DNA of 64,000 nt from Phoronis australis. Taxonomy: Eukaryota > Animalia > Phoronida. Positions 8,216-62,105 of this stretch are shown one piece after another. The first letter of the stretch is position 1; every line of letters starts with the position of its first letter. A program made the position numbers and the translations under genes. Where the stretch lies: assembly GCA_002633005.1 (NCBI GenBank), contig NMRA01000349.1, positions 62,001 through 126,000 on the forward strand, given 5' to 3'. A model generated the notes under the pieces. That model worked only from the letters and a program-made list of their open reading frames with translations. It made no database searches and had not been told where the DNA came from.

Positions 8216-8855
8216 TATTCAGAGAGATGTTTCCGGTGTGTTTTATGGACGCGTTTCTAAAATGAAAATTGCACAGAGCCTTCTAGCAAACCACACGCTC
8301 AAAATTCCATAGTTGTGAAACTTATTATTTGGTAGTCACAGCAGAAAACTGGGCACAAGTAATTTGGGTTAGTCTAGTCAGTCCAAAAACCTCACGCAGC
8401 TCACACAGTTTACCAATGGAACAATAAGGAATGCAGCAATGAAGACATATATTTCAAGTTATGTTGCTCATAAACAAGATGTGGCGATAACTCCACGAGG
8501 GACATGAACAAAAGCAAACAGTAAACAAACACAACTTCTAGACAGTCAATCTGTTTACACTTGTACATTAGAAATCATCCAATTCTACGGACAACTTGAA
8601 ATTCAAGGCTAACAAAATTATCAAAACATTAACACAGGACAGAAACAATACCATTTCTCATCAAACCCCTGATTCGTACAGGTCAAGCCAAATATTAAAG
8701 GTTAATAAAAATATTGACCTTGTGAATTGAGATATGTGAATAACACGATTTTCAGGTAAAGATCGTTCCGTTTGTTGTCATCACGAATTTTCAGTCATGC
8801 GCTTTAGTTGACTTAGCTTAAGAACCAATATTGTGTAAATCTATTTAGTTTCAAA

Positions 8856-9135
8856 CAAAATTGCTCACCTGTAAATTAAAACAGTTTTTGCATAAAGACG
8901 ACTTTTAAGTATTTAAAAATGCTTCGAAAGTGATACCGAAACTACTAGCAATCAAAATTGCTCAACTGTAACTGAAAACAGTTTTTGCATGAAGACGACT
9001 TTTAAGCATTTAAAAATGCTTCGAAAGTGATACCGAAACTACTAGCAATCAAAATTGCTCAACTGCAACTGAAAACATTTTTTGCACGAAGACGATTTTG
9101 ATGCTCCGAAAGTGATACCGAATTTGCAGCAATCA
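8856..9135. repeat. Tandem repeat, three ~97-bp units
   Basis: caaaattgctca...gcttcgaaagtgataccgaa...gcaatc starting at 8856, 8953 and 9050. Confidence 0.9.
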
Positions 9136-10085
9136 ATGCGACATACAAGAACAAAAATTCTATTGTATACTGGGAAGAGCTTTGTTTACTCTAGATGTCT
9201 GGGTGCACAGGTGACTCGCCGAAGATAAGAATAGCCCGGTTTGATAAAATCCGGGTATCGGGTTGCTGTCTTTCTAAGAGCATTCAGATTACATCCCTGT
9301 GGCATTTTAACGCACTTTTTCATAATACCCCTCTAGTGCACTGCTTTTCTGTGTTGTTCAGCTCTAAGACTGACGTTTATTGATTTTCCGCAACCTGGGG
9401 GGACAGATTTGTGCGCAACATGAGTTATCAAAACATCTATAGAGTGCCTCACTACGCTCATGTCATATCAGCTCAATACTTTCATAGAAATAACACAAAT
9501 TTTCACATTTAGCTGAAAGTAATGAATTGTAGAGTCTTATAGAGTAGGCCATACAAGCACTGAGAACTTTAAAACAACGAGTTTCGCAGTTATTCTAAGT
9601 ATTTTAAAGTTATCTGAGGGTCCAGTCAAATCTCTGTTAACTCGAATCGGTAATTGGCCAATATGTATGGTACGCTTCGAACTAACTTACAATTTTGTTA
9701 CAAGTCATGCGGCGTGATTGGTCAACAGATTACAGTTGAGTCCAAGGTGAAGGGGGTCGGGATTCTCGACTGGTCACTAGTTAGAGGCCATGTTTACACG
9801 CGGAGAAGAAATGATAAAATTTGCTTGCATCGAGCGGTTGTGAAGTGTGTGAACGGAAATTGAAAAAATGAAACATAATCGATGATCGTTGTACATATGC
9901 GCACTCACAGGCATCATGTTTGTCGAAGCATAAGACGCAATGATTTTTTCTTTAACTAATTATGAGCTGGCCATAACTGTTTACTTTGGGCACCGATGTT
10001 TAAACAAAGGAACTGATACACTTCTGAGGGTACTCTCTACGAGGGTGATTGCATTACGTTATTGCAATGATGCAAGATGACGACT

Positions 10086-10691
10086 TCAGATACCTTCCTG
10101 GATTATGGACTTGATCGTTGAGACAATCCCATCATAATTTTTCGCATTTCCAGCCGATAGTTTACCAGAATTATAAATTTGCCAGACTCCACTGCGTTTG
10201 CACATGGAGCACATTACAACTGCTTGAGAATGACGAGCGTGTTTGAAAGATGTCGAACACAGATCTTTGTGTATGTCTGAAGCTTCATAAAACTTTAAAC
10301 TAGGGTTTGGGTAACGTGAAATGTTTGGTGAACTCCATGCGCTGAGTGTGAAAAATAAATGGGTTATGTTTTGTGACATTTCTTTCAATTTGACATTTAT
10401 TGTATGATGACCTATTCTTTTTTGGTCGTCCATTTTGTCACCTGAATGTCGTATCGCTTGATTTTTTCTGTGCCCATAATCAACTACAAATAACAAGTTT
10501 GTGCCACTAAATGCGAGGCATGATGCATCAAGGTAGTCTCTACCAGAAGACGGATACCCCCAGAACAAATCAAAGATAACGTGATTAAACTGGTCGGGAA
10601 TAGCGTACAGTAAGACCACGAGATGCAGTGTCTGGTGAGCTTGTATGCCGTAGTCTTGCAGTTGTGCTAGGGTGCCATTTTTTCTTTGAAC
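10086..10691 (-). CDS. RING-Ubl-TerD-like gene copy A, last exon (C-terminal half of Ubl + TerD-like domain)
   Basis: Acceptor tttcag|GTT at 10691, 606 nt to TGA. LQDYGIQAHQTLHLV matches ubiquitin LSDYNIQKESTLHLV. Then LFWG..DYLDASCL, HSGD, I.VKL..ITHLFFTLSAW, QAVVMC..GVWQI: TerD-family pattern. About 78% aa identity to paralogue at 61500-62105. Confidence 0.85.
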   Translation of the reverse strand, partial: VQRKNGTLAQLQDYGIQAHQTLHLVVLLYAIPDQFNHVIFDLFWGYPSSGRDYLDASCLAFSGTNLLFVVDYGHRKNQAIRHSGDKMDDQKRIGHHTINVKLKEMSQNITHLFFTLSAWSSPNISRYPNPSLKFYEASDIHKDLCSTSFKHARHSQAVVMCSMCKRSGVWQIYNSGKLSAGNAKNYDGIVSTIKSIIQEGI

Positions 10692-10837
10692 CTGAAATGG
10701 ACAACGATCTATCAGAATTATTACACCACGGGAGACACAAATCCCATATAAACAACGATAACCATCCCCTAAACGTTTGCTCTTGTAGTTCTTAGTTTTT
10801 ATCCCACAATATTAGCACCAAATGGCAGATACAACCG

Positions 10838-11669
10838 TGTAATAATCCATTAAGTTATCTCACTAGTGAGATAACGATTTGGCGGGAAACCGAGGACGGA
10901 GTCGAACCCCGGACCTTGAGTTTGTTGGTCGCCGACCTTAACCACTACACCACGTAGCGGCTGACGTCATCAAGAGTGAAAATAGAATACTTAAATGAGC
11001 ACGCGCAATAATCGCATGTTCAACAAACCGCATTGTACTGTACGTATACTCTACGAAAAATAAGACACATAATTTCCATAAAAATGACATCTTAATTCAA
11101 TGAAATATTTCTCTCATGTCCTCTTACTTGTAAATCACCGATCTCCAGTTTGAATGCGGGTATCGTGTCGTCAGGATCTTTGGCTTGAGAATTATATTCA
11201 GTTACCAGTGGTAACCTACTTTAGCAGACGATAATTTCCCGGTCGAAGCTTAGCGTGAAGAAAACGTGTTTTAAGCTATAATAGTTGGTAAACCTTACTT
11301 TATAAATTCAATTTATTTCTATAATATTTAAGTTTTCAATTGGTTTTGAGTAAAAGCAATATTTGACAAAAATAACCGGGCTTTTCTTAAAAGGTCACGA
11401 CCTCCGACCCCGGCCTCTGACATAGAAAGTAGTTACAAAGCCGTGGAGAGTCAGAAAAGGTAAATCGATTCATTGCAATGTTTCTCGTTTAGTATGTGGT
11501 ATAAATAGATTATTACATGTTCTCAGCCGTTATCCCCCTTATCTAGAGCCCACGTGGATTTTGGAGAATTATCACCCTCGGGGCTGACGCCCCTCGGGCG
11601 ATAATTCTCCAAAATCCACTCGGGCTCTAGATAACGGGGGATAACGACTTCGCCATGTAATAATCTATA
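10838..11669. mobile_element. Non-autonomous element in intron, containing a tRNA-like segment and a ~165-bp terminal palindrome (class uncertain, possibly Crypton-like)
   Basis: Begins and ends with tgtaataatc(c/t)at; near-perfect hairpin 11505-11669; 3' part repeated at 7965-8215 and 13585; hairpin-end fragment at about 3675-3730. Confidence 0.55.
10888..10960 (-). repeat. tRNA-derived (SINE-head-like) sequence with Pol III A and B boxes
   Basis: Minus strand TGGTGTAGTGG (A box) ... GGTTCGACTCC (B box); acceptor and anticodon stems do not pair well, so not a functional tRNA. Confidence 0.6.
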
Positions 11670-11948
11670 TTTATCAATAGCTGAAAAGCGTTCAACGCAT
11701 AATTGGCTGCGCACCAGCCGCGGCGTTTTGACTACAGGAACACTGTTGTAGATAGTGAACATACGACATCGAGTCTCTCATTTCAAGATGAGCACGAGGA
11801 CTTTAGGGACTCCCACGCCCAAAGCCGACTTTACGCTATTATATCCGATTAGAATAAGCTAGACGCCATTGAAAAGTGAAAACCTGAAAACAAACCGACT
11901 TCACATTGATTCGAACATATCCGCATGTCTACAGAAAGTGGAACTTAC

Positions 11949-12269
11949 GTCAACATCCTTGCCGTTGAACAACAGTAGCTGTTTAGACTCCTCGTGACCT
12001 TGTCTCTGAAGGATGATCTGTTTTAATTGCAGTATAGTCATTGAAGGGTTAAATGGCACGAAGATACTTTCCCCCGTCAACGTTGAAATTCGAATGTTGG
12101 CTTCAGTATCGCCGCTAGGTTCGGGGGCGCTGAACTCAACGTTGTAGGTGGGGAAGAGATAGGCAAGCCTTAGTTGAATGTCTTTGATAGCTGGTGACTC
12201 GGGGGTCACTTGGGCAGCGCAGTTCATGTCCGGACATTCTGGCTTCGAATGGACACTCTTGACCACACA
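11949..12269 (-). CDS. RING-Ubl-TerD-like gene copy A, middle exon (end of RING + N-terminal half of Ubl)
   Basis: ttgtag|TGT at 12269 and GAC|gtaagt at 11949; 321 nt, phase 0/0; CVVKSVHSKPECPDMNC then IRISTLTGESIFVPFNPSMTILQLKQIILQRQG..KQLLLFNGK, clearly ubiquitin-like. Confidence 0.85.
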
Positions 12270-12681
12270 CTACAACAGGAAGGTGCTTTACAAGCAAGGT
12301 TTTGTTTACGTTTATTGATTTAGGTATGAAATCCCTTTTAGAATTGCCCTCAAAAAGCTAACGAAATATATTTTCCACACAAAGGTATACGCTTCACGAA
12401 AGGCTAGTCTCCTTTAGTCTAACGCATGGTAGTCCCAAGTTGGCGAAGCCGTTTATGTTGTGATGTACCTGAGAAAATATACATTGCAAATTGCGAACTT
12501 AATGGGATTGTATGTTTTCGACTTAAAATCCGATTAGAAATGCTACTTGTAGTAAACTACTTTCATTCAGCCCGGGTATCGTCGCTCCATTTTCATCACA
12601 ATCGTATTTTGCCGGGAATACTTTAAAACACGTTTGTTGAAAACATGTTGTGAAATAATTTGGAAACCGTTACATACTTAC

Positions 12682-12780
12682 TCTCATACACGCACGTGAT
12701 ATATGATCACATTTTTCTGTCAGTGGCTCCGGGGGAAATTCTTTTGACAGTTTCTCTATTCCGCATATAAAACACTTCAT
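12682..12780 (-). CDS. RING-Ubl-TerD-like gene copy A, first coding exon (RING finger N-terminal part)
   Basis: Not in the ORF track. ATG at 12780 (acceptor ttttcag 8 nt upstream); MKCFICGIEKLSKEFPPEPLTEKCDHISRACMR|gtaagt. Splices in phase 0 to complete C-x2-C-x17-C-x-H-x4-C-x2-C-x10-C-x4-C. Confidence 0.8.
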
Positions 12781-13342
12781 ATTGCAGGCTGAAAATAAAC
12801 CATGGTTTAGTACATTCCTGTGCTGTACTCAAAACAAAAATTGCATCGCAAGCAGGTAAAATCTATAACTGCTCGATATTATTTGATGTCACCAACTGAT
12901 GCTGGGTGTTGACGACTTTAATAAGTGTCAGCCATTGTTTTGTAACTTTCACTAGACTGGCCAACGCTTAAACTTATTTGTCCCCTGCTTATATGTAGTT
13001 GTCAAGGTGCTTGACTAAAGCACTTTGGGGTTTAAAAACATTACCACGCTTTTTCAGTCATGAAACTCTGAAACGTATTTCTCGAGTCGCTCATGATTTC
13101 AATGATTTTGTTAGTAAAAAAGTAAATGACCTTATTTGATTTTAGTTTTAGACATCTAATTAACGCGCGAAATGCAGCTTAAAGATGTTTGCCACCTGTT
13201 ACGTCATTGCAGGCCAGTAGCAAGGTAAAATTTCACTCTGGGGGACACATCTAAATGCGACATCTTTAAACTTTACTGCCTGCCAGGTAGGTATCGTTTT
13301 CTTCCCCTTGTCCTCCCAAATTTTGTTCTGTTGCCACCACTT

Positions 13343-13583
13343 CATGCGCGCACCCAGCCTTTAATATGTCAGGCTCGATTTTTTCCGACGACGTGGACCT
13401 TTTACTGACAAAAAAGCCCGAAGTACTAAAAAAAATTTTAAAAAAATAAAACGGGGTAGCACGTCCAGGGCTGTGAATTGTGCGTTTACGCCTTTTCAGT
13501 GGATTTTTGTCTCGTTTTCTCGGACTTTTTGTTTCTCCGAGGCGGACCTTTTTGTCCACTTCGCCAAATGGGGGGACTCTTTT
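13343..13583. mobile_element. MITE copy 2 (CATGCGCGCACCC family), truncated at single-N join
   Basis: Left TIR and internal sequence match 955-1175; ends at n 13584. Confidence 0.75.
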
Positions 13584-16500
13584 NACATAGAAAGTATTTA
13601 CAAAAGCCGAGGCGAGTCGGGAAAGGTAGTTCGATTCACTGCAATGTTCATCGTTCAGTATGTGGTATAAATAGGTTATCACGTATACTCAGCATGCACT
13701 TTCATCCTCGTCAAGTTCGCATCTCTCCAATTTCCACTCTCCACTCTGTCACTGAAGTGTCTGGACTTTGCTTAGACTGTTTGGGCAGCAAGTGATATAG
13801 AGTTTCCGAAACTTCGCCAAAATTCGCTGAAGCATTAATTTCTTAAGTTTTGTAGTTAAAATGCAGGATTTACTACTAAAGAGACTAAAATTCCGCCTTC
13901 CGTCAAGAAATAATTGACTGTTTGTTCTTGCTCAAGATAACGCCTGATAAGTTCGCTTGACACGGCGTGTCATTTTGTGCACCGAGTATGGACTCAAGCA
14001 CTTCCGAACTGGCACTTTTTCCATGACCTAGAAATCATTCTTCACCTAAATGAGGAAGACGAGGGACCGAGCTTTAATCATTGTATAGTAATCGAAATTT
14101 ACTAACTCAAAATTTCGAATTCATGATCATACGGTCATGTGATGTGGCCAACAGGGAGCGTGCAAACTGGACGTAAATGTTTGTAACTCATAATTATTTT
14201 TGTCATTTTCCGTCCTACTTTTCAGTGAACTCAAGATAACTGTTTGTTGTTCTTTGCTCCTGTACATTATGGTTTGCGCATATGAGTTCTAGTCCATGCA
14301 AGTTGGCCCTCAATGACCCCTAGATTCGAGCTCTAAGTTCAAGTAAAAACTGAAAATTTTCGAGTTCACACTCCAACACCCTTTCAAGTAAATCATACTA
14401 TAAGTTACTCGAGTACGGCATGATACACACTTATGCTGAGTTAGCAAATTGCACAAATAATTTCAATTTCGTTTACAAAAATTATACCCCAGGTCCAGTG
14501 GTTTTATAACGGATAATGGTGTAAATCCAAAGTTATCTTTTGAAAACCACGGTTGGGTTTGTTACCGCTCTTGTAAATTTGTGTTTTATATATTTTTAAG
14601 TGATTCCCGAAGTCGCACGCACACAGATGCCAAACGAGCACCCGAAGACAGATGGGCGACGCAGTACCATAGCCCACGGGCCAGGGAGATTTAGACCCTT
14701 CCTTAAAATAATGTTAAAGATTTTGCACTTCACTAAAAAGTCATAGAAACTTATTTACGACTGACAATATTTTGAACTCTTTGAATCTGAAAAAGTCAGA
14801 CAACCAGTGACATGTACTCGGCCATAATCCCATCTCACTGACCGTCTGACCTACACAGAAAGTATTGTACGTAAAACTGTCTTTTCATGCATCGTGTCTT
14901 CCTCATAACCATCTTCAAAATAACTACTGTTCAATTGTAATCCTTTGTCATATAAAACCACAAGAACTGTTGTTTTTCTGCAATTCCTCTTTGGCTCATT
15001 TATGACACTTTGCTTTACGAATACTACGGTGGTGGGAAACTGGGAACAGCAGACCGTCTCAGTCACCACACCTTTTTCGAAGAAATCATTAACGCACAAC
15101 CTATATCCTACAACTAATACTAATAAAAAGCAGGTAAAGGAAGAATACCGAAATGAGCATCTAAAGAAAACGCTAGAAGTTGTATAAATCGAGCTACTTA
15201 CGTTTATCGGCATTGATTCTGTGATAGCAGTGGAACTAAAACATTTGTACTTTACAAACGACAAGGAGAAACTATGTTTTCCGCCCAACCGACGTAGATT
15301 GAACCTGCTGCCTGACTAGCAACATATAGGTCACAAAGACCATAAAGCCACCGTGTTTTGATGCACAAAAGAACACCACGAAAAAATATTCTTTTGTTTT
15401 CAAGATGACTTTTTCTGCATATCTTTTCGCTATTTCGATTTGATCATCGTTTTGAAATTTTATTGAAATAAGCTTAGTATCAATTATTAATGACAGCAAA
15501 TGACGTCATTGTATTGGAGCTTTCGTTACTACATAAGCGAGTAAGCCGCAGACAAGGTGTTCTTTGAAAGCGCTCTACTGCAGTGAAAGGTGTTGCTTTA
15601 TTACATTTAAAATGAAAGAAGTTCTTACAACTTAAATGTTTTTGATAGACAGACTAGGTACAGGAAACCGATAGGTACGTAACAATTACTACTAAGTGTG
15701 ATAAATTTTAGCCCTCAACGTTACACGTGGACAGTGCCTCAGTAGCTGTAGGAAAATGACTGGGTACACGCAGGACGCGGCCACGGAATGTCAATGACAC
15801 TATATACAACCTGTTATGTTGTGTGAGGATCACCTATAGCTATGACTTTTCCTCATAACAGCATCATTAAGGTTCGTGGATTTTCAAGAAGTATTAGGTT
15901 AGTCTACTTTTTCTTTACTGACCTATACTTAGGTCGGTCGATGACGAGCAATACAACTACGGTTAGTTCCTGGCAACAGCCGGTTCGAGGTTTTAGATTA
16001 GCTGGACTCCGCTGGTGAATCTCTTTTTCTTTGTCACCTTCCGTTTCCCTGTGCGTTTCTTATTGTCCTCCCCGAGCTCCCCAACTATATCGTGGAGGCG
16101 TTTAGAGACCAAACTTGTCCTACGCAAGAGACGTACACTATGCCTAAGATAGGTAGAAAACGATCTTCTGACTTTTTGCGTCTAGATTTTTTCAGTTCTA
16201 GTGTACACTCATTAAAAATGTAATTTACTGCGAGTTACGTGTCTTGCGGAGGATGTAGGGAACTCGGTTCATTTCGAAGAAATTATGTGTTGCGTACATG
16301 TATTTATTGATTAGGACACGATAAGCCGTACAGTGCCGTGATTGGTTAATTTTGGGAAGAATTATATCTTGTTTCATCAGTGAGGGGTCACGGGGATTTG
16401 TGATATGTTTGTACAATGTTTTGTTACATTTTAAGTAAATATGATAAAATCCATAGTTTATTACAGTAATAACATTCCTGTCTGATTTTCAACAAAATTA

Positions 16501-26765: not shown

Positions 26766-26776
26766 GTCAAATAAAT

Positions 26777-32182: not shown

Positions 32183-32235
32183 TATGATGCTTTTTGTAAA
32201 AGTTGTTCAGATTGAAACGTTAGCAATTTTTACAG

Positions 32236-34226
32236 GTAATAACGAAAAGATTTGCTCTCTTTGTCCCGGACAAAGTGACTACGAAGTATGGCCATGATCC
32301 GAGAAATGTCTCATTGGTATTCGACAGCGAAATCAAGGACATTTCAGAAATACAGTTTAAAAAGCACGCGTCGAATTCAAAGATCTGGATTTCTTCTGAC
32401 GCCACCTTTAACGTTGAAGACACCAACCGAGTCAAATATTCTTATATTCTAGGGTTTGAAAAGACCAGAGGTCAAAAACTTTTATCCGTGCTGACTACCC
32501 TTTCAACCCAGGCTTTAAACGAAAATGAGTATGCTAAAGAAAATACAATGCGAAGTCTTGAATCTGAGGCACTTGTTCATTGCGATACATTTATGCTGAG
32601 AAAGTGGGATAGGAATGTGCAGAACATATGTGCTCAAGACGGTTTTTATAGCCATGTTCAGATAATGAATGACGAAGTGACCAAAGATACACTGAAAGAC
32701 TTTTTGATTCAGCTCGAATATTTGCGTTTCCCAACTCAGATGGTCGAAAGCAAGACTCGCAAAGAATTCGTTGAATTTTTAAATAAAGTATCGTCTCCGG
32801 ACGTTGCCAAAGGGTTATTTCTGCTATGTAGTCTTTCTTTGTTTACCCATTTAACCCATAATGTCATCTGGGAAAACATTACTGAAAAGACGGCAAGTTG
32901 TTTGGTTAAGCCTTTGTCAGGAACATCACGCCAAGAATTGCTTGAATCCAGGGTAAAATCAGTAATGGATTTGCTTCCAACTCTTCTGAAGCGTGCGTTT
33001 GGAAAACAAGTGCCATGGGAATTTTGTTTGCAGTTCATTTTCCCGTTCCTGTCGCTTGAGGAGGCTAAGAGTATCCAAGGGAAGTTTCCAGGTCCAGTTA
33101 AAAGCTTCGACAGTCTTGAGCCTACATTAATTCACCTGTTCCACAATTTACCCAACTGCTGCGGAGCAATAGAACTCTTTAAACTTATTATCAGTCGCCA
33201 ATCAGTACCTTTTTTAATTAAAATTGAATCGTGGTTAATTTCAAAAGAAACAGAAATGGCGAAACATCAGTTCCAGTTTCTTGTCTCATCAGTTCATGCG
33301 ATATATATCAACTTATTGAAGATGAGGAGAACCCACCAGCATGCCGAAAATCAAATAGATGAGTGTTGGCAACAATGGAAATGGATCATCGACCACATAG
33401 TTGTGATCAGTGATGAACTGGCTGAGATAGTGCTTGATCTGAAACCATTGAAGCTGTTGTTGCAAGTTAGCTCCCTTGTTAAGGGTAAGATGAGACGTCA
33501 TGAAGATTTAACCGTTAGGTTTAATGCCAATTTGAATAAAGTCACACGACAAATGGTTGAAAGTGAGCTTCATAGGAAGACAAGTCTCTGTGGTATCCAA
33601 GAGACATTAGCCCTACTTGAGAGAAATGTAGAGAGCCCGATGTATGAATTACTAGCACCGCTTGCTGCCCACCGTGTTGTTTCAGTGTGCTCAGACTCGT
33701 GTTGGAAGTCAGACGAAAGTGAACTTGAAGCTTTGGAAAACCTTTCATCAAATAGCGAAGTGTTCGGTAAAACATGTGACTTCAGAAGTTTGGTTTCTTG
33801 CATCGCGAATCACAGTGAAGAAACGGTTAGACACATTTTCATCAACCTAGTTAGGAAAGTGAATCATGACGATCCAACCATGTGCGATCCAGCTTTGTCT
33901 TGGTACAACACAGAGCAACGGGCTATAAAGACGACATATTATCAAATCTCTGATAAAATAAAGGCTATATACGATCTGTATTTCCTTCTTCATGATCTGC
34001 CAGCCTTGAGACAAAATAAAGAATTTTGTCAACAAATCGACAAAGAAGTGGAAAATAGCATTCACTCATTTGGCGTGCATAACTTATGCCATGAAATTCC
34101 AAGATTAGAGAAGATGAGCCAAAGAACCCAACAAAAGTTTGAAGAGCACCTGCAGAAAATCTTCATGTCGCCATCTAGTGTTCCACAGCTACCGTTGACC
34201 AATACCAGGATCTATGTCGACACAAG
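32236..34226 (+). CDS. RNF213: RNF213-like gene exon 6 (1,991 nt; possible degenerate CBM20-like beta domain + helical N-stalk)
   Basis: 651-aa ORF; ttttacag|GTA at 32236 and AG|gtaacg at 34226; phase 0/2 matches the giant exon. Confidence 0.85.
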
Positions 34227-35411
34227 GTAACGTAGGCATTCTGTTAAGCACTCCTGTCACACTCGCACACATGTTTGGTTTTCACTGCATGATGTTCTAT
34301 TTTTTCAGCCATGCCAGGCGCCCGATACGTTTCAATAGTGCTTCAAGTTTTGGCTGCAAAGGTCTTAAGAGCCGATACTGCTTTTGAGTCAGTGCCGGTT
34401 TTTGGTCTTAGTATTTATAGAAATGAGACGATAACATCTTTCGCGATACTACTCATATTTAGGATATACATACTGTCATATCTTTCGCTGAACTACAGTT
34501 AAACGTCATCATTTACTGTACAACCAATAAGTGGTTCCTCACCAAGTTTCTGTATAAAATCATAGTCCCACTTGTAAGAATGCCACAACATTCAATCATT
34601 TAATCACGTCTTGGCCGCGGATGCAGTTCTGTTCATGTAACATCAGTGTTTAAAAAATATTGAGCTGTTTGTTCATTAATCAACAGTGATTCTTTGATAT
34701 GAAGGTTCGGTTAAAAGCTTAACTTTTCTAGCCTCTGAATTGTCTAAACTGTAACTAGTTCTTTTTACTTAGATTTTTTTTCATTACACCTTCGTCTTTC
34801 GTCCCAAAGTTGTTACTTTACTGTGCATGTATTAATATTTATTTCATTTTTGATTAATTTTCTTCGTGTATTTATGTTTTCATTTCATCGTTCAACGTCT
34901 TTGTTAATGTAACCTTTACTGCTTTTGTTTTTACGATATTTTTATCGATATCTGCACCTATTTTATATTATTTTGCTTCTGCTGTACAATTATTTCGCGT
35001 CTTTTATTCCTAAACGTGTTTATTCCTTTTGTTCATTGCTTTAAATGACCTATGTGGGTGAATAGTAAATGTTACTGAGACGCCTGTCCACTGTTAATAA
35101 AGATTTGAATATCTCAGCATCCGTATAGTCAGTGCTGTGTTAATTATACGCATGGTGAGACACCAACACTTTTTGTCACTGAACTTTCATATCAAAAAGT
35201 CACTGTTCATTCAGCAACGAACTTTTCAATAATCTTTAAACAATACTACTACATGAACACAGATACACCTGTGCCCAGCATATGATTGCATGTTGTGTTA
35301 TTCTTTCTAGTTTGTGAGATGATGTATTGTAAGTGTGTGGATGTGTGGAACTACTTATTGGTTGTATAGTCACTGATGATGCTTACCTGAAGTTCGGCGA
35401 AACGTTTAACA

Positions 35412-35523: not shown

Positions 35524-36291
35524 GGTAATGTATATGATAACGTTACACAGAAATAGGCGAACTTTTATCGAATGAGCGTTCTTAGAGGCGTACTGTTTGC
35601 AATGTAGTAATGGGCGAATGTCAACGCTTTGTGGTGTTCTTGCTGTGAAACATGTTGGTGATTTGAGTTTTGATCCTCTTTTTATTTAATTATCAAAATT
35701 AATGATGTAAAAACATTTGTTTTTTTATTACCGAATTCCGTTTAGATGCCGTTAAGTAATGTGTCAACGAAGACACGAGTGTACAGTAACTGCGCGTCGG
35801 TATTTGACAATTCAGTAATACACTTACAGTCGTTTTATTGTCTGTGTGACCACACCCGAATTTAAATCTGATTTTCGAGTTTGTTGTTGAGTTGTGCAGA
35901 AGTCATAACATTTGATTGCGCAGGTGAATAATCGGTGTTTAAAATATTGACCACCAAGTGAAAACTGGAAATCAAATAAATGTTGATTTTGGTATTGTTG
36001 AATTACACAATTGATGATAGAACCGTAATAATTTACCACACCATTTTATGAATTCTACCGCAGCGATTGTTCAGGGTTTTTTTGTTTTCAAAACATGAAT
36101 GATCTTGTTCAGAAGCAGCGTGTAACTGCTCTGAGCTATGGGGAAACGTTATTGTTTGGATATCCGATGCACTTATACGGTGTGAAAGAGGCAGGTGTTA
36201 TACAACTCTTTTATATGGATGTCTCTGACACATCTTAAAATGATAGCTTACGTAAACTGACTTACTGGCAATATCTTAATTTTCATTTCAG

Positions 36292-39200
36292 CCTACGTGC
36301 GGTGCCTATCAAAGCTCTCCTGAACGTCCAAAAAGTGACACCTTGTCAAGACATACAGGATCCAAATCTCCTTCTCAGCTTGAGAGATATCTTGAAACAG
36401 TCTGACTTTTGGTATAAAATTCTGTCTGCTGATGGCAGATTTGCATTCTGCCTAAGAGAGCACGATAGTGCTAAAACGGTTAAGTATATTTTGTTATTGG
36501 TGACAAGTAGTTTGAAACAACCGAGCACAGCTGTTCATGTTGCAAAATCCTTGTTGGAAGCATTTGATTCGAGTGACAGGAAATCCACTGCAGTGCTTCT
36601 CGACTATGTTTCCAAAGACTTCTCAAAAACTGCTAGACACATCAAGTCATTAATTGATCGAGTGTCAGATGTAGTGAGAAAATTGCGAACGTTTGAAAAT
36701 GTTTTCCTGCCGATGTGTAAACAACAGCTATGTGACAGAGAGCAATTCAGTGCTGCGTTGAATGATATAGAGATAAAACTAACAAAAGGAGACACGTGTA
36801 GTCTTGCCGAGATTAGTAATGATAAGCGTTTCTGGGGTCCTTTTATCACCATGGTTGATCATGTATCGCTACTGCAGTCGTTGAAAAGTTCTAAAGCATT
36901 CTTGAAGTTATCTGAGAATACCCTACTCACGACAGATTTCCACAGTAATGAAACTGTCGGTACATCATCGTTTAGAGACAGCTCATTTGATGGCTCTGGA
37001 GACAGTTCTGGGCTTCTACATTTGCACGAATTATTTGATGGTGAGGAAAACAAAGAGATGGATGGTGAGCAAGTATCTAGCGGCGAATGCGGAATTTCTG
37101 TGTCGATTATAGCCGAACACTTGGCTGGTAACACATTCGAGAAGTACAAAGCATGTCTTGCACCATTCTTCGACGGCACCGATGTCTCTGTCGCTAAAGT
37201 TCGTGACCTGTTTGAGTCTTGCGACTCACTCGAAACTGAAGTAGATGTAATTGAAAAGATTTTTTGCAAACCCTTTCATGCCGACTTCAAAACAGCTTTG
37301 ATGAATTTCATGGAATATGGCAGCTACATTAATCAGGTTGAAAATATTAAGACTTTCTTGAAGAATTTCAACCTTGATATTTTAGAAAGTGACGCCTTAG
37401 GTCTTGCTTTGAACTCTCTTCTCAGCTGTGCGCAACATGAAGGAGTTACTCTGCTTCAGATAAGTAGAAGTGTCCAGTGTATAAAAGATCTGCTCATTGG
37501 CGAAAAAGAAGACGCTATTCTTTCAGAGCTTACTCGGTCAAAAAACTTGATTGCATTCATTCAGGACAATCAAGATGAAGACTTCAGAAATCTTATCGAT
37601 GCAGTCGAAGAGCATTCTGATTCCTTTGTTAGAGATGTACAAGTATCCCAACTGATTGAAGTGAAGCGGTTTCTTTACCCATTAATCCGTATTGTAAAAG
37701 ACAGAAATGGTAAAATGGCGAGCCTTGAATTTCTGGAGTTTTTTCTAAAGGAATGTAAAGGCGTCTCTGGCGATATAGGAGGTAAACTGAATGGCTGCAG
37801 CGAGCACTTCTACGCCTTAAAAACTCTTCATTCCAGTGTGGCTAACAGAGGTGAAATGACGAAGGGAATTATTGAAAACATTATGAAGGTCGGGAAATTT
37901 GTGTTCAACATTAAATCAGGTGAATGCGACGTTACTGTTTCATACACACGAAATCATCATAAAAGAAGCTACACATTGCAGGAACTGTCGGACCTGAAAA
38001 GTAGAGCTTTGCTAATAACAAATAAAGACTCTAACGTCGAAGGTGTCGATGATCTTGCAAGTGCAAAGGTAAAAGACGCTTTAAAAGGGTTTATCACTGT
38101 TTACGATGATGTGAACAGTATTGTCCAAACGTCCACTGACCTTCATAGATCCGGTCATTTCAACTACAGGGTGTACAACAAAAAGATCACTCAACGAAGC
38201 GAATTGAAACATATGTCTGATGCTCTTGAGCAAGATCGCAAGAGCTGGGATGATAAACTAAAGAAAGCTCGTGAAAAGTATTACCATCTCAATTTTGTTT
38301 ACTCTGACCAGATTTGGACGTTGTTTGACTTTTTCAAGGCTAAAAAAGATCCAGAACGAGCAAAGTTTATTCTTCAATTTATTGACCCAAATATTCCGTT
38401 CAATGACGTCCAGCTGGTGCCCTTCCATCAAAATGATGACAAACTTGATTTTGTGGGTAAACAGTTACAACAGGTATTTGGGGCTGCAAAAACCATGAAA
38501 CGACCTCTCGATGTTCCTGACGACTCAGCCCCCTTGAAGGACCTTGTCACTCCTGCTTTACCGTTTATTATTCATCAACCCGATGGCTGCATGTCTGTTG
38601 TCAAAACCGTTTTCAAAGTGTATGGATCACTTTCCAACTGCTACCCGTTACCGCACCAGATTCTATTTTGCTCGCCAGATTCTGAGTGGGAACAAATTCA
38701 TCTGCTTCTACTGCGATACATTTGCTCAAAACTTCCTGAAGAAGTCTTCTGCCTTGCGAACGTCGAACTACTTCCTAACGAGTTGCAGTTTGCGTTAGTG
38801 GATGAAATCAACGAAATGATAGAGCAGTTTCAGTTGTACCATCATCCTGTCTCATTTCTTTGTCTTATTTGTAAAGGGTCAACATCTGATCCCGTACTAG
38901 GTAAATTCCCAGACCTTGTTCATCGGACTCAGCCGCTTCATGAAAAAGACGTAGAAGTTTGTCTTCAAACAGTTTGTCCAAATGTGGTGACAGTAACGTC
39001 GGCTGTACCTGGTCTTGGCAAATCCGAGACAATACGCAATTTATCGTTTGCTAGTGGGAGAGCGGTTATTCATTTTCCTATCAATGGCCCATTCATCAAA
39101 CGTGAGCTGATAAGAAGGTTACAGTCAGCAAAGATCACACATAGTTCGCTTTTACACCTAGATATCGGCGAAGTCGATCATCCATACCTGCTGGAAGTGT

Positions 39201-42200
39201 TTATTTTCGAGCTCACTGTGCTAAGGATGGTTTCAGCTGGAACAGAGAGGTATGTCTTGCCGACTGAATATGTCTATATTGAACTTGGGAATACACTGAA
39301 ACAAAGGTTACGCAATATGTTGTACATTTGCACGTGCTTCACACGGCTGAACTTAAAGTGGCAAAATTATGATGACTTCTTGGTTTCAACTGAGTTGTCA
39401 AGTCCTATTCAAGTGGTCTGTCACTACCTTCACGCCCTAGAAAACGCCACGGTTGACACCTCTGACATTCATTTTGGGGAATGTTCAAAACTGGAACCTT
39501 TACAGACCGACTTGTGCCGGGATTTGATGCGCAGGCATTTGACTCTTGGAGATGATATGTCATTCACAGTCGTTGAAGTATTCCTCAACGTTTTAGCTGA
39601 TCAGCTTAGAAAGCTTTCTGGTAGCCAGTTCTTTCAGGCACACATTCTTAAAAGCATGGTTGGAGACAAGTCCAATGTGAAGAGTACGCTAGTGGAAGCG
39701 ATGATAGATGTGTTCAAATGTTTTGCGAGCAGATCAGTTAACGCATATAGAGAAGCCCAAGCAGACGTAATTGAAATACAACACTCGACGCCACTAATAA
39801 AAACTAGGAATGACATGGTTGCCAGAGTTGACGGTATGATTCGGTGGGCGGACACTAATCACCTCCTCGTTATATTCCACTCTCAAGACTTCAACACAGT
39901 TTCTGCCTTGTACAGGAACAAGGAAAAAGTTCCAGATCAAATTTCACATTTGTTTAAGACGCAGATCAAACGACCAATGCCTAACTATGAACGAGAAGAC
40001 CAAATGTCACTCCAGGCTGAACTGGAAAAAATCGTCAGAACAAGTCAAACGTCACCGTCTAACTTGCCTAAGGATTATGCCCTGACTCCCGACAACTTGC
40101 TTAAAATGGTTCTGGTATTTTTGAGGATCAAAGCAGGCGTGCCTGTTCTTATCATGGGCGAAACCGGATGTGGCAAAACTAGCCTAATAACGTATCTGGC
40201 GAAAACAACTGGCTGTCATTTAGAGATCTTCAATATTCACGCAGGCATCCAACAGGAAGCCATATTGGAAAGGGTGAAGAAAATGCATCACGACGCTCAG
40301 ACTCACCCCCAGCTTCAGTATTGGCTATTCATGGATGAAATCAATACCTGTGACCACCTTGGCCTTATAAATGAAATGCTTTGCCACCGCACGTGCCTTG
40401 GACATGCGATTGCCCCAAATCTAATTCTACTGGCTGCTTGTAATCCTTACAAAGCACGAAACGACGACAAAATTCTGACTTCAGGGCTTGAAGGAAAGGT
40501 GAAGGCGGATACCCGTTCCAATCTGGTGTATAGGGTTTACCCGTTGCCGGAATCAATGATTGATTATGTTTGGGACTATGGTTCGCTTAATGAAAATGAC
40601 GAAAAGGCGTACATTACGAGAATGGTCGATGTCGTCTTTCCAGATCACAAGGAACTTTTAAGGGAGCTCTTATCGTCATCTCAAGATTTCACGAGAAATT
40701 CTGAAGCTAACTCTTGGTGTGTAAGCCTTAGAGACGTGAAACGATGTATATCGTTGTGCGATTGGTTCCTTCGGTATTACATGGCGAAAAAGTATAACAT
40801 GGACAAAACGAAAGAACCACACAAAAGAGTGCTGTTGCAAAACTCCATCATATTTGCATTAGCCCATTGCTATTATTCCCGCATACCAACTTCTGAAGCT
40901 CGTATTAAATATAGTGAAAGAATGGCGGAGATTTTCCAGAACCACGGACACAACATTAGCAGTAAAGGTTTCCGACAAATCCTGAGAGAAGAACAACAAG
41001 AATTGGTCGATAAAATGGACCTGCCAGAAAGCACTGCTAAGAACACAGCGTTGTGTGAGAATGTATTTGTAATACTCGTTTGCATGTTGAACAAAATTCC
41101 AATCTTCGTGGTTGGAAAACCAGGGTGCAGCAAATCACTCTCTGTACAGCTGATACGAAGCAACCTCCGTGGCCCGGATTCGCGAAATGATTTCTTCAGG
41201 TCCCTGCCGCAAGTGTTCGTTGTGTCTTATCAAGGGTCAGAATCGTCGACGTCTGAAGGTATTATCAAGGTTTTTGATAAGGCGAAGCGTTACAAGGAAA
41301 GTAATAATACGGATGCAGTGCTGCCTGTCGTTTTGCTAGACGAGATAGGATTAGCTGAACAGTCGAAGTCAAACCCACTGAAAGTACTGCACTGTCTACT
41401 GGAACCGGAAGGAGGAAAACTTCCAGATGTTGCCGTTGTTGGAATCTCCAATTGGGCTTTAGACGCTGCAAAAATGAATCGAGCCATTCACCTGTCTCGC
41501 CCTGAGCCCGATCAAGCTGAACTTTACGATACTGCCCACTCTATTTCTACATGTGTGGAATTGGACAAATCGTTCAGATTTCTGAGTGGTGGTCAACCTC
41601 ACGATACACCACGATTAACTGAAGAGGAGTTGCAAGCTGTTTCCAAAGCTTACTTTGAGTATCAAAGGAATCAAACCCATCGTAATTTTCATGGTCTTCG
41701 AGATTATTATTGTCTCATTAAATACTTGAGTAAGAATGCGAATGGCTGTTTAGACATCGAACGTTGGAAGAAAGGCCTGCTTCGCAATTTCGGCGGCCTT
41801 TCTTTTGAAACACACACAATCGTGAACAAGTTTCTGTCCTTTGTCAACCCATTGGAAAAGTGCGAAGCGTGTATTCCTGTCAAAGAGCTCGTACAAGAAA
41901 ACGTGAGTGATGCGTCCGCTCGACATCTCATGTTGATCACACATGGAGACTCCGCCCTTGGAATTCTGGAAAATTTCATCAATCTCCAAAATCGGAGACA
42001 TGAAATAATTTTTGGAAGCAAATTTGAGGAAGATCTATCTGAAGACTATAATTACAGAATGCTCAGCAGAATCATCTTGTGCATAGAACAAGGTGTCATA
42101 CTTGTTCTAAAGGACCTGGAAAACATTTATGGGAGTCTTTATGACATGCTCAATCAGAATTATTCACTTGTCGGTATCAAAAAGCGAAAAAACTGCAGAA

Positions 42201-45200
42201 TTGCCCTGGGGCCTTACAGCAACCCAATGTGCTTTGTACATGACGACTTCAGATGTGTTGTACTTGTTGATTTGAATAAAGTGGATTATTCGGACCCACC
42301 GTTCCTAAACAGGTTTGAGAAACAGCTTCTTACCTTTAAGGACGTCCTTAATAAAAGGCAGAATGACGTAATTGGAAGACTTGAAAAATGGTTTAAGGCA
42401 TTGTGCACAATTCTTAATCTCAAAGATCTCTTCAACGAGGGCAATGTTCTTGTTGGTTTTTCAAATGACCTGTTGTCCTCGTTGGTATTGCACATTTGGC
42501 CAAACTCCGACTGCGGCGAAGAGGAACAAAGAGAATATCGACAAAATGAAGTATTAGACAAATGCAAGCAAGAACTTATGTGGATTTGCTCGCCTGATGG
42601 TATGCTGAGGGCTTCTAAGTCAGTCCTTGCTTCAGAAAATGAAGAGGAAGTTCTTAAGTGGCAGCAAGTCTATTTTGAACTTCCGATTCACAATGGTCTG
42701 CGACGTTTTTTGTCCACTATTCATGCTGGTCAAAAAGGTCTTTGGATATCTGATGAAACAGGTTTCAAAATAATCTTGTTCACTCGCACGAATATAATGT
42801 TTGATGTACAAGACTGTGTTAAAGAACTTTTCTCTTGCCAAGTAGAAAAGTTAAGCGTGTTCAAATCTGAAAAACAGCTTACTAGCCAAATCAGACAGTT
42901 TTGGAGCGATGATAAGGACCTGTTGGTCTTACAGTGCAAACCTTCGTCGGACAGTCAGCACATTTTGCTTGCGAAATCCATAATCGATAGGCACAGGGCT
43001 GAATACAAAAAGACGGAGCCTGAGAATCTGAAACATGTTATTATCGTAGTACACCTGGATAAAGAGAATGTGGATGGTTGGCAGTTTAATTATTTGAGTG
43101 GTTGGAAACTTGTCAATATAGATTCGTTGGATGAATTGGCAATTTCCTTGCCTTGGCTACGGGGGAAGCAGGTAGTCGAAATTTTAGAGGATGAGTCTGG
43201 ATTTGACATGAACGAGTCCATTCTAGACAACCTACTGTGGGCATTTTCTGTCATCAAGTATTCGGGGAAACCTCGATCCACGGAGAATGTGGTAAAGCTT
43301 ATAGGGAGAGCAAAAAAGTCAGGCATTATTGTCGTGATAAAAGAGAGAATACTTAATTGGATGAGGGGGCACAATAAGGATTGGGGCGAAGCGTCATGTT
43401 CATGGCAAGTGACCCTGGCATGTGATAGCTACGCGCTACATAACTCTTCAACAGTGCTTGAAGCTTATAAGTCATACCTACTAGAAAAGGTTCGAGAACC
43501 TTTGGCAATCATTGTCTTCAAGCTGGAAACACATGGGGCTTGGTCAAGTTTTGCTGACCATGTCACTTTCTGGAAAGCCGTCTTTTTCAGTGACGAATTA
43601 CTTGATATCGATCGTGTGCCATTGTATCGTGAGGCTGGTTATTACAATCTGGAAGGCGTGTGCCTTGACCTCGCCTTCCCGTTTACCAGATTCTTTGTAC
43701 AAGCTCTTTTTGACGTGAAAGACGTTTTTCTTCGTGGCTATCAAAGTTTATTAGAGCATGATGATAATCTCGACGAAGACGATAATATTCTACGTTCTGT
43801 GTACTCTTCTCATCAGCAACAAACATTAGAACTAATTTTCGAGAATGTCCCTGGTCTACGTACCTACATTTCCGAGAACAACTGTGATAAGTTCCTGGCC
43901 GACTTCTGCAACATTGTAACAGCAGAACACGACAGTTTGCTCAAGACCGAAGACCGAATATATGTAGCACGATGGGCAATAAACCTCCACCAAGAAGACA
44001 GCGAACAGTCCCCACACGAAAAAATTGTTCAGGTTGTTACAAACTACTGGGTTCGTGGTCCTGTTGTGCATAGTATCTTACGTTTGGCATCTGAATGCAA
44101 GGAAGTTGCTGGCACCGACGTAGTGGATCTAATTGTTGCAATAAAAGCTGGAATGGACATGGACAGTGAAGAAATAAGTGATCAGTTGTCTAATGAAGAC
44201 GACGAACATCCTGACGATCAGGCTGAAGAAGAAAAGGGAGACAACAACGGAGAAAACATACATGACAGAGGTGTATACTCCCCGGAGGATTGTCTCGTCG
44301 ACGCAGCTTGCAAAGCAATGCTTCCAACAGAAAAAGTTATAAACGCATGTCATGGCATTTTGAATTGGCAATATAAAGTAAACCTTGTGCTATCTGTAGC
44401 TAGCCAAGTGAGTTTATCATCCACTACACTGCATTTCCTTCGCACGTGTAATGACTTTGTCGTCAACTTACAGATTCCATTCAATCTACAGGACACGCAT
44501 GTTTCAGATATTGCCGAGTGTGGTGGTTGCGAGGGTGATCCGTTAGAGTCAAACATAGTGTTCAATCGTGTCATGAATATGGCAGAAACCCTGGTAGAAC
44601 AAAAGAAGGTACCACTGCTTGAAATGCAAAAGTTCATATGTCTGTACCTCTCCAGGTGTTTTGATTCGTACAAGTCCGACGGCGTGTGCGTTGCAGTTGA
44701 CGCGTTTTTGGAACGATTGTCAGAATTGAAAGCGTCAGACAATGCCTTGCATTTCTTCGGAACTATAATCGACCGCCTCTGGACTGAAGAAATCCATAAC
44801 TTCCCTGACCTTCTCACAGAAATTCTTAGCGGATGTGAATTAGCCGAGCATCCGAATTTACAAAGACTACAGGATGTTTTCTCTCAGTGCACACCGCTAG
44901 CTGTTCTCACATGTGACACTGTTGAGATAATCTTCGCCAAAACACATTCACAGCTCAATAGGGTGGACTTGGAAGGTGAGGGTCACAAGGAAGTGCTGAG
45001 TACGCTGAAGAACACGCTAGCGATAGTGCATGACGAAACTAAATTGTCAGTGAAGATTGTTGTTGCCGTCTCTTTTATTAAATCGTTTTTGCGACAAATT
45101 GCTTTGCTTTTGAAGGACTCACAGCACTTCATGAATACTGACGCCTCCAACAATTTCCTGCAGGAAATTTCGTCTCTGTTTGAACCCCCCTCTGGTGCCA

Positions 45201-47941
45201 TTGCTTCGGACGTGCATGATGAGTGTTCAGTTACTTTCTTACTAAAAGCCTTTCACGAGAGTTTGAGTTTTCAAGAATCGATCCTGCTGATTAATGAATA
45301 TACACTGAAAATACCTTCTCTCCAAAGGATTAAGTGGGCAGAAGACGATTTTGTTAACCCTTTGGGCTTCAAAGTGATGTCAGAAGTTGCCGGTTACCAG
45401 CAGGTCTTTGCAGGTTTTCGGCATTTTCTATCAGGTGACAATTCTGATGTAAAACAACTAGTCACTGAAGCTTCAAATTCGGCAGAGAAGAAGTTCGCTC
45501 TTCTGTCTGTTGTGAATGACAACCTTTATCTTGTTTCGGGTCAACGTGAACTCAAAGACACCGAAAACCAAGCAGGATGTGTCGTTGCAAAACTTTTTAA
45601 AGACGTCAATGTCCCTGCCTTGCTGATAAATCTTATAAAATGTTTATGTCAGGAAACGAAGTTCCACTTGCCAATTTTAAACTTATCCCCTGCAACATCA
45701 AAGTGTGACGTACAAATCGCTTCCGTAATGATTCATTTGGTTTGCATGACTGTGTCTTTTGCTGACGATGGTCAGTGTTTGTTTTCCAAAGCTATTCGTG
45801 ATCCTTTAAGCTTGAAGAGTCTCTTCATTCCGTCTGCTCAGCATGAGAGCCCCACTCACGAAGATATGGATAAAATGGGTACTTACGAATGCGTGTGCTT
45901 ACATAAAGTTGTAACAGCGACGGACAGATGTCCGGTGTGCCACACAACCTTGATGAGACCGACAGAGACTGTTTTTGAAGCTGAAATACCATCAGCTCAG
46001 TTGAAACCACCTAAGGGTTTCTGTCGCTACAACCCGTCACAAGATTGTCCACGTGGCATGTCCTCCACATCCTTCTTCATTTGCAGACTGCTCTTGAACA
46101 GTAGTATTGCAACTGGATATGCGTTGATGAAGTGTGATCTCACCGATATCTATAACCAGGATGGAGTAGTTTTATCCCATGACACGGCGTTAAAGTACAT
46201 CACAGAAGAGCTCAGAGAGATGTGGGGAATTTTAGAATCTTTATTTGAATTGCCTTCTCACCAACTTTGCTGTTTCATGCACGCGCTTCTTCGTAGATTG
46301 CAGCCCTTTTTGACCGATTGCAACCGTTCATTTGCTACAGTTGAAGAAAGAGCAGAGTGGGAGCAGATCTTTACGAAGGAAGTGGACGAACTTATCAGAG
46401 TTAGACATCGCGTTATACGACAAACCATGATCAATACCATCGTGACGTCTGACAATAGCGTTGAGTCGGCAGTCGATGAGCTGAATGATGCCAACACGAC
46501 ACTAGCAAGACTGTTTAGGTTTACTCCCTTGAAATCCACTGAAAAGCTGTTTGGCTTATACAAGCTTAGTGAATTGGAAATCAAGAATCCATTTCTTGGG
46601 TTATTTTTCACCTCTGGTAAGCAACTGTCTATCCTGCGATTTCTGAAGCCTCTTCTTAAGTGGCAAAAGTTGATTGCAAGTTGCAAAAGCCATCACCTTA
46701 CCCGCAAGCGCTCCGGTGAAACCATAAGGCAGGTAATCAGCGAACACAAAGACCCAAAAGAAAAGCAAAAACTGTGTGATGTGTTTGACGAGTTTGCCAA
46801 GGCTTGGAATGAAATTCGTCCGTCTCTGAAAGCTAGTGGTACATGCACCTCTCTTCCAATATTACACGAAGACTGTAAAGTTTATGAATGCGTGGCTATC
46901 AGTGAGGAGTCAACCGTGTACAAAGTGATTGAATCGCTCGTCCACATGCAAAACTCTTTCTTAGACAAAGTTCTAAGACTGGCCGTTTCGGGGAGGTGTG
47001 TTGCTTTGAGTTTTCTACTTAGAGAATCCTTTGCAGCGGTTGTCCCTATAATTCCTTTGGCTGAGGCGGAGTTGTCGCACATTTTGGACTTATGTTGGGA
47101 AGATTTAATCACTGACTTGCTAAGACTGTCTCAGTTTAACACAGTTCGAGGAATGGGTAACGATTTGGAATTTGACTTCACAGCCATTGAGATCGAGTTG
47201 TCAGGCATTTTGGTCTATGGAAAGGCACACCTTTTGTTGGACTCCAGTTTCCCTTTCTTTGCATTTGCTCATGAATTTCCACGTAACTCCACAGTCTTGG
47301 CGCAGATTGGAAAGACAATATCACAGAAGGCACTTCCTGACACGGCAGTTACGCAGCTGAAGGAACTAAACAACGCCAACCCACTTAATACCACGACGTT
47401 AAAGTTCGACTTGGACATCGTCGTTGATATGCTCCAGAAATCGCGCTCGCAGCTGGAATCACCTCAAACATCTATCTTGGACTATGCTGACAGATGGTAC
47501 ACTGTGTTGAACAAACATTTTCCTAGAGACCTGTTGCCGCAGCCAGGGAACTCTTTAAAACTTTGTCATCTGGTGTCTTTGAGTGATACTCTTGACGAGC
47601 TGCTTTCTCATAACTCGGAAGAAAAACTCATGGACAAGTACCGAGAACAGCTGGACAAAACCAATGAGGCAGAATTGCAGACTCGTCTGAGGAAAACGAC
47701 CGCTGACCTTAACTCTGTCATCAAGTTGCTTCGGAGTTTCATTTACAGGTACTTCTCCACACGTGAAGACCTGATCCCAGACGAGTCGCAACCATTGATC
47801 AACCTGTTAATGGCTGAGTGTCAATCCAGAGACGGTCAAGATGATCAAATGTTTATGAAGGAACTCGAACTCCTGTTCACTCCAGTTGTACAAGTACAGC
47901 ATTCATATACAGCCGTAAAGCAGGTCAAGCAAGTTATGCAG
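36292..47941 (+). CDS. RNF213: RNF213 (mysterin)-like giant dynein-related AAA+ ATPase, exon 7 (11,650 nt)
   Basis: 3890-aa ORF with RNF213-family motifs: PGLGKS, LTPDNLLKM, VPVLIMGETGCGKT/LFMDEINT, LVYRVYPLPESMIDYVWDYGSL, VSLRDV, IPIFVVGKPGCSKSLS/VVLLDEIGLAE, GISNWALDAAKMNR, FHGLRDYY, SLYDMLNQ, PPFLNRFEK. Acceptor catttcag|C at 36292, donor CAG|gtattt at 47941. Confidence 0.93.
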
Positions 47942-48451
47942 GTATTTTTTTCTTATTTCCTCCATGAATATTGAATATTTAGATCTACACGTAAGAAATG
48001 ATAATTCCCAGATATTCAGTAGTTATTTCAACCAACAACGGAGTTCAGTGAACAGACAGGATGACGCATAAACGTCTGTGGTCAGTAAGTAATTAAACGG
48101 ACACATTGAGTTTTATGGTCGAAAAACGAACTTTTAGGATTATTGTTGGATGGTATAGACGTCTCGAAGTTATAAGCTTTGACCAGAGCTACAAAACAAG
48201 ACACTCCGTTGTGTTTTGTGGATTTTATTACAAATCGCCAATTCTCATTGCTGGCTGGCAGTCGTCTGTTGAAAACGAGGTCGGTGATTTTATCACTTAA
48301 ATACGATTAAATAATTGGCCGTATCTATCTCGGGATATTTCTCAAAAATATTTTCCTCGACGATTGTTTCACTCTTAATGTATAAGAAATTTTGTGGCAA
48401 ATGATTATTTAATTTATTGTGTAGTTTAATGAATATTCGTTGAATCTTTAG

Positions 48452-52030: not shown

Positions 52031-52031
52031 N

Positions 52032-61499: not shown

Positions 61500-62105
61500 T
61501 CAAACACCTTCCTGGATTATAGACTGGACAGTCGACACTAGTCGTTTGTAGCTTTTCGCATTTCCGGCGGAGAGTTTTCCCGAGTTATATATTTGCCAAA
61601 CTCCACCGACCCTGGACACAAAGCACATAACTACGGCTTGGGAATGGCGGGCATGGTTGAATGACGTCTTACACAGGTCCTTGTGTTTATCTGAAGATTC
61701 AAAAAACTTCAAGCTGGGGTTTGGGAAACGTGAAATATTGGGGGAATTCCAAGCACTGAGAGTAAAAAACAGGTGGGTGATGTCTTGAGAAATTTCCTTC
61801 AATTTCACATGAATTGTATGATGTCCTATTCTGTTTACATCGTCCATTACGTCACCAGAATGCCATATGGACCGGTAAAGTTTGTGTCTGTAGTCCACGA
61901 TAGCCAGTTGTTTGGTTCCACTAAAAACCAGGCAGGACGCATCCAAAAAGTCGCAACCATTCGCAGGATATCCCCAGAATAAATCAAAGATGACGTGATT
62001 AAACTGGTCGGGAATAGCGAACAGCAAGACCACGAGGTGCAGTGTCTGGTGAGCCTGTATGCCGTAGTCTTTCAGTTGTGCTAGAGTGCCATTTTTTCTT
62101 TGAAC
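61500..62105 (-). CDS. RING-Ubl-TerD-like gene copy B, last exon (upstream exons not found; probably beyond window end)
   Basis: Acceptor ctgcag|GTT at 62105; exactly 606 nt like copy A; intact frame; same Ubl and TerD-like motifs. Confidence 0.82.
   Translation of the reverse strand, partial: VQRKNGTLAQLKDYGIQAHQTLHLVVLLFAIPDQFNHVIFDLFWGYPANGCDFLDASCLVFSGTKQLAIVDYRHKLYRSIWHSGDVMDDVNRIGHHTIHVKLKEISQDITHLFFTLSAWNSPNISRFPNPSLKFFESSDKHKDLCKTSFNHARHSQAVVMCFVSRVGGVWQIYNSGKLSAGNAKSYKRLVSTVQSIIQEGV

Follow-up and report, generated by a model that had tools for sequence, protein, structure and literature searches.

The window analysed here, a 64,000-nucleotide (nt) stretch of Phoronis australis contig NMRA01000349.1 (positions 62,001 to 126,000), encodes on its minus strand, at 10086..12780, a 341-amino acid (aa) protein combining a RING, a ubiquitin-like (Ubl) and a TerD domain. 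The plus strand carries a giant RNF213-like AAA+ gene of >4,500 codons, in which RING and canonical RZ finger motifs were not found. We propose from sequence comparison, with a probability of roughly 45%, that the RING-Ubl-TerD protein would be a separate ligase subunit of the neighbouring ATPase, probably in cell-autonomous defence. The small protein would supply the ligase half, since the linked giant lacks the known ligase parts repeatedly (in corals, a brachiopod and amphioxus). We infer a physical partnership leading to ubiquitin transfer, where the RING would recruit a ubiquitin-loaded ubiquitin-conjugating enzyme (E2), the Ubl would serve for docking, either to the ATPase itself or to partners that bind ubiquitin, the remodelled TerD pocket would bind a target or small ligand, and the RNF213-like ATPase would act as scaffold and switch. 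An immune role is suggested by the homology to RNF213 and by a report that poly(I:C) induces a Nematostella RNF213 homologue, with the paralogue left unspecified (PMC13319465).

Joining exons 12780-12682, 12269-11949 and 10691-10086 (99, 321 and 606 nt) gives a minus-strand open reading frame (ORF) of 341 aa plus stop. Both introns are GT-AG and phase 0, the first splitting RING ligands 5 and 6 and the second lying within the Ubl, and the three-exon model of the first-pass annotation thus holds on the window sequence. Exon 1 aligns with the family RING profile at a probability of 98.9. The gene (copy 1) and the visible part of a second copy comprise:

12682..12780, minus strand: coding exon 1, aa 1-33, with RING ligands C3, C6, C24, H26 and C31
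12270..12681, minus strand: intron 1, GT-AG, phase 0, within the RING
11949..12269, minus strand: coding exon 2, aa 34-140, with RING ligands C34, C45 and C50, a helix, a flexible linker and the initial two-thirds of the Ubl
10692..11948, minus strand: intron 2, GT-AG, phase 0, within the Ubl, containing dispersed repeats
10086..10691, minus strand: coding exon 3, aa 141-341, with the Ubl remainder and then the TerD-fold domain, aa ~171-341 (10089-10601)
9400..10085, minus strand: 3' untranslated region (UTR), minimum extent, covered by a spliced X1 contig that extends 364 letters beyond
61500..62105, minus strand: exon 3 of the second RING-Ubl-TerD paralogue (copy 2), 77% identical to copy 1; the window ends before its exons 1-2, presumably located past 64000

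Intron 2 is skipped exactly in a 1,846-nt contig from run X1, presumed by guess to be RNA; the contig matches 9400-10689 (two other letters) and 11947-12138 (none) over ~1,480 compared letters, and junction 11949^10691 is thereby confirmed. Stranded reads from minus-strand RNA also cross this joint in X2, X3 and X4 (9, 3 and 1 reads, respectively), and are assigned to the second paralogue or a close sister because they match the second-copy letters (61500-62105) at 6/7 listed differences. In X2-X4, no depth was seen for copy 1 over 9862-10477 and the reads with second-copy letters are spliced; in X1, the depth was 52 for copy 1 and 23.5 for the paralogue. The two copies may differ in expression, or the pattern may reflect variation between individuals. 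Intron 1 is crossed by a paralogue contig only (16+12 other letters), in which 12269 and 12704 are linked through 22 letters, as many as 12682-12703 contains, and loose read ends occur at the paralogue intron 1 (9 and 10 reads). The predicted junction 12682^12269 of copy 1 lies at the position that is spliced in the paralogue transcript. Paralogue reads depart from the genome near 12790, at an AG (12789-12790, minus strand) 8-10 nt before the ATG; a non-coding 5' exon probably lies upstream of the ATG, and 12789-12790 would then be where an intron in the 5' UTR ends. Both intron positions recur in other animals: the donor of exon 1 follows the same codon in all six loci where exon 1 was located, and the exon-3 acceptor falls on the same codon or the next one in 36/36 of the loci listed; the whole ORF is intronless in nine loci, which are probably transcripts. 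Copy 1 is a real gene under purifying selection, given the conserved introns, the spliced transcripts and a ratio of nonsynonymous to synonymous substitution (dN/dS) of 0.10 between exon 3 of the two copies.

The eight zinc ligands of the RING (in RING order C3, C6, C24, H26, C31, C34, C45 and C50) are invariant in 15/15 aligned homologues, while some divergent members among 150 wider representatives lose ligands. Ligands 4 and 5 are separated by four residues in 58/58 near homologues and 35/36 wider ones, compared to the canonical two to three. The second zinc loop is extended to four residues between C45 and C50 in the window protein and 51/58 near homologues, but exceeds two in only 11/36 wider ones. 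Ala occupies the position of the Arg/Lys linchpin after ligand 8, where R/K is found in 3/58 near and 6/36 wider homologues, and the usual E2-contact positions carry variable residues. By sequence, the closest solved chain is RNF4, and fungal members match Pfam C3HC4 (E 9e-6 and 4e-4). The resemblance to RING1 of the RING-between-RING (RBR) ligases, noted in the first-pass annotation, is thus partial: the C45/C50 spacing and extended loop are there, but no Pfam IBR match was found in 43 members, Ubl and TerD take the place after the RING where a catalytic RING2 would be expected, and the loop is short in most wider homologues.

The second domain matches Pfam ubiquitin at 35.8 bits with the exons separate, and has the beta-grasp fold. 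Most of the 119 sequences compared retain L8, G10 and a hydrophobic residue at position 44. A cleavable C-terminal Gly-Gly after the Ubl is absent in the window protein, and a GG near the last strand occurs in 2/91 sequences, in keeping with the earlier description of an integral domain.

Exon 3 matches Pfam TerD (PF02342) at 27.8 bits (cut-off 25.3), as do 43/43 homologues at E <= 0.1. The domain has the TerD beta-sandwich fold and its nearest structures are bacterial TerD, as the first-pass annotation had predicted of the fold. It is also the most conserved part of the protein, mean identity being 58% overall versus 46% in the RING. The prokaryotic comparison set held 13 TerD-family proteins (three plasmids and one phage). 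W184, D195, H222, D225 and W310 are shared with these, while four conserved polar positions are replaced: the acidic GDN...GDDE motif, which we take to be the calcium site of bacterial TerD, is lost through changes of N, D, D and E to V/K, G, H and H, respectively. The Glu of the D-D-E run is E in 12/13 prokaryotic domains, but His in 132/133 animal, 4/4 fungal and 13/13 other eukaryotic domains; across the 150 wider representatives the position is H in 111 and Q in 37 (His/Gln 148/150). New near-invariant residues of the domain are D211, C301, N322 and Y326, and D211, N322 and Y326 suggest a different binding site.

The RNF213-like gene between the two copies consists of:

32224..34230, plus strand: N-terminal coding stretch, with a match (E 2.5e-18) to a profile built from the N-terminal parts of homologues
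36239..47974, plus strand: main ORF of the AAA+ protein (3911 aa), without RING or canonical RZ finger, with a zinc ribbon (aa 3218-3235) at the RZ position

The AAA core (aa 1147-2160) is dynein-like and matches solved RNF213 at E 3e-126; the C-terminal stretch tested had no match to solved RNF213. For the partner, 120 of 900 matches were listed and the counts given here cover those. Neither a RING pattern nor the spacing C-x3-H-x6-C-x8-C-x2-C of the RZ finger (10.1101/2021.05.10.443411) occurred in any of 123 large sequences (the 120 matches, the window ORF, the ORF of coral-like locus L027 and one other), vertebrate RNF213 not having been run as positive control. Likewise, Pfam RING or RZ matches were found in 0/7 homologues scanned and not in the window ORF, again without a vertebrate RNF213 control. 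A four-ligand zinc ribbon lies at the RZ position, 2030-2180 aa after Walker A and, in full-length models, 720-760 from the end. The ribbon is without the conserved central Cys, the residue of the RZ finger that accepts ubiquitin in RNF213 (10.1101/2021.05.10.443411). The main ORF, 11.7 kb long, accounts for most of the RNF213-like gene, and many of its homologues are likewise single ORFs of 3,900-4,300 aa in metagenome contigs, several of these on equal-sized contigs, where tandem arrays are likely.

In the window, the two RING-Ubl-TerD copies flank the RNF213-like gene, copy 1 pointing away and copy 2 toward its 3' end. At L027 the pair is convergent and 4 kb apart, this being one of 51 loci, or one of the four with >=5 kb on a side. 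Among the matches listed, seven named assemblies are common to both lists, and the pair lies on equal-sized contigs in five of them, with near-consecutive gene numbers in three: a Branchiostoma hybrid (LOC144869351/352), Dendronephthya (LOC114520098/095) and Lingula (LOC106173543/550), 1, 3 and 7 apart, respectively. In Potamilus and Stylophora (2/7) the two genes are on different scaffolds. The gene pair persists across three animal phyla. The L027 partner (5826-11810, minus strand) has a ribbon at aa 1276-1311 with a weak, below-cut-off Pfam TerY-C match (E 0.05), probably a generic zinc-ribbon likeness, although TerY and TerD are both components of bacterial Ter systems.

With exon 3 as the query, 291 proteins were recovered from 323 candidates, and the complete architecture is present in 44/150 representatives (clustered at 50% identity). 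Carriers with a name include, among animals, corals, bivalves, gastropods, Lingula, Patiria, Branchiostoma and Petromyzon, and, among other eukaryotes, Salpingoeca, several Glomeromycota, Planoprotostelium, Paulinella and Pterocystis; the look-up covered 20 representatives, 12 of them with a name and 8 with a taxon. The lamprey member is P0281/P0424 (Petromyzon marinus LOC116951905); no jawed-vertebrate member was found among the named matches. Other eukaryotes have this TerD subfamily in fusions with E2 and F-box or with an alpha-kinase, and the former fusion ties the subfamily to ubiquitin transfer. A separate protist family combines E2 (in four proteins), F-box, an unannotated region of ~300 aa and the same His-type TerD (P0136, P0137, P0139, P0147; also P0134, P0141, P0143, P0144, P0146). 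Two molluscan-type proteins (P0128, P0293) have a vWA domain ahead of RING-Ubl-TerD, a pairing that echoes bacterial Ter neighbourhoods. In a quick tree of 57 TerD domains, the eukaryotic family is split from 12 prokaryotic domains by a branch of 2.85 (Shimodaira-Hasegawa-like approximate likelihood ratio test, SH-aLRT, 100), the window copies are sisters (98), and a single eukaryotic C2-TerD, which carries the acidic motif, groups with the prokaryotes. No close relative in bacterial, archaeal or viral contigs was confirmed, and the best plasmid match to the domain is 27% identical. The bacterial ancestry suggested earlier is in keeping with the nearest structures; prokaryotic sampling is thin, and we claim no donor.

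None of the 23 other ORFs scanned in the window, 20 of them in the stretch that the copies flank, gave a match above a Pfam cut-off. Broken ORFs at 3441-4551 (plus strand) resemble, by eye, a LINE-type endonuclease/reverse-transcriptase remnant, with no Pfam match above cut-off. The palindromic and dispersed repeats at 11497-11676 (intron 2) and 13343-13692 (upstream), where unstranded reads reach a high depth, are probably non-autonomous transposons. Likely assembly joins are a gap of 498 Ns at 5428-5925 and two tandem duplications of 416 and 656 nt, at 26714-27546 and 50870-52682, that meet single Ns.

The strongest competitor to a separate subunit is a stand-alone E3 ligase, close to the ligand-sensing E3 originally proposed, in which the RING recruits E2, TerD selects the ligand or substrate, and linkage reflects shared regulation of a pathway rather than one complex. 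A complete RING and a recognition domain do share one chain, as in RNF146 and DELTEX, in an architecture fixed in 44/150 representatives; the pair is unlinked in 2/7 named assemblies, and nucleotide derivatives have been proposed as TerD ligands (PMC7159879). We nevertheless consider this reading rather unlikely, as it leaves unexplained the absence of both ligase motifs in the linked giant and the persistence of the pair across three phyla, and the linchpin is mostly absent. The original proposal is partly supported, and the separate subunit is favoured. Less probable still is a non-catalytic adaptor, whose RING would be a structural zinc finger while Ubl and TerD gate or target the ATPase with no ubiquitin transfer. 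The odd H4-C5 spacing, missing linchpin, variable E2-contact positions, ligand loss in divergent members and better conservation of TerD than of the RING would all fit such a role, but eight zinc ligands and a probable RING fold kept across eukaryotes, with the C3HC4 and RNF4 matches, would be difficult to reconcile with it.

A catalytic relay, where E2~Ub is kept open by an RBR-like RING while ubiquitin passes to a TerD Cys or a His/Asp-activated hydroxyl, appears improbable. An extended loop II and absent linchpin favour open E2~Ub in RBRs (PMC5462532); E2-TerD fusions exist, and C301, C285, D195, H222 and H236 are near-invariant across 133 animal domains. In the 150 wider representatives, however, the Cys give way to small residues (C301 in 132/144, C198 in 107/138, C285 in 96/147) and H236 to Gln in 37, bacteria have Ala/Gly/Val at the Cys positions, suggesting buried sites, and the long RING loop is absent in 25/36. 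We give almost no weight to a contaminant, a pseudogene or a recent bacterial transfer used as calcium or tellurite sensor. The nearest structures are bacterial and the top Atlas cluster is 79% bacterial, but the conserved intron positions and spliced transcripts argue against contamination, as the first-pass annotation had reasoned from the introns, and so does the eukaryote-wide spread; the dN/dS, the long branch, the distant plasmid match and the lost acidic motif likewise speak against this origin.

Extended beyond the window, the separate-subunit reading leads, tentatively, to an ancient eukaryote-wide split RNF213 machine, with a ligase-less AAA+ scaffold and a RING-Ubl-TerD subunit that would recruit E2 and recognise a microbial ligand via the TerD pocket. 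If true, this would be a third ligation route for the RNF213 family, conserved in lineages as distant as protists, fungi, amphioxus and lamprey. RNF213 is a moyamoya-disease gene and an immune ligase that ubiquitylates bacterial lipopolysaccharide. Its choice of targets and the function of its RING are open questions, for which a RING-less, RZ-less relative with a small partner offers a testable two-component version. The TerD ligand is unsettled even in bacteria, and ubiquitin transfer could here serve as its read-out, with a 341-aa protein small enough for direct biochemistry. Among the papers listed in literature searches, none dealt with a RING-Ubl-TerD protein or its link to RNF213, although a 2012 Ter-system survey or its supplement may list the architecture. 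Public databases already contain such proteins, annotated as uncharacterised. The novelty is thus an undescribed eukaryote-wide protein of known parts and a conserved gene pair; the mechanism is testable, and unproven.

The window protein has partial counterparts in several known systems. Small E3s such as RNF146 (RING-WWE) and DELTEX (RING-DTC) likewise pair a RING with a recognition domain, and Parkin, HOIL-1L and UHRF1 likewise carry an integral Ubl without GG; to our knowledge, none of these has the RING-Ubl-TerD order or a TerD module. The extended zinc loop II is shared with RING1 of RBR E3s (HHARI/ARIH1, ARIH2, HOIL-1L, RNF144A), from which the protein differs in having no IBR or catalytic RING2 and four residues between H4 and C5, and most non-bilaterian family members keep the canonical two-residue loop. 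Bacterial TerD/TerZ (PF02342; PDB 2qz7, 2kxt, 3ibz, 2qng) are 13-21% identical to the window domain, which has G in place of the D next to W184, V in place of the Asn in GDN and G-H-H in place of D-D-E, and which sits behind a RING and Ubl rather than in a ter operon. Vertebrate RNF213/mysterin (PDB 6tax, 7oik, 8s24, 9g08) resembles the window giant in its dynein-like AAA core, its similar length and a ribbon at the RZ position. The window giant differs in having neither the RING pattern nor the CHCC-plus-catalytic-Cys spacing of the RZ finger, and in being linked to a separate RING-Ubl-TerD gene.
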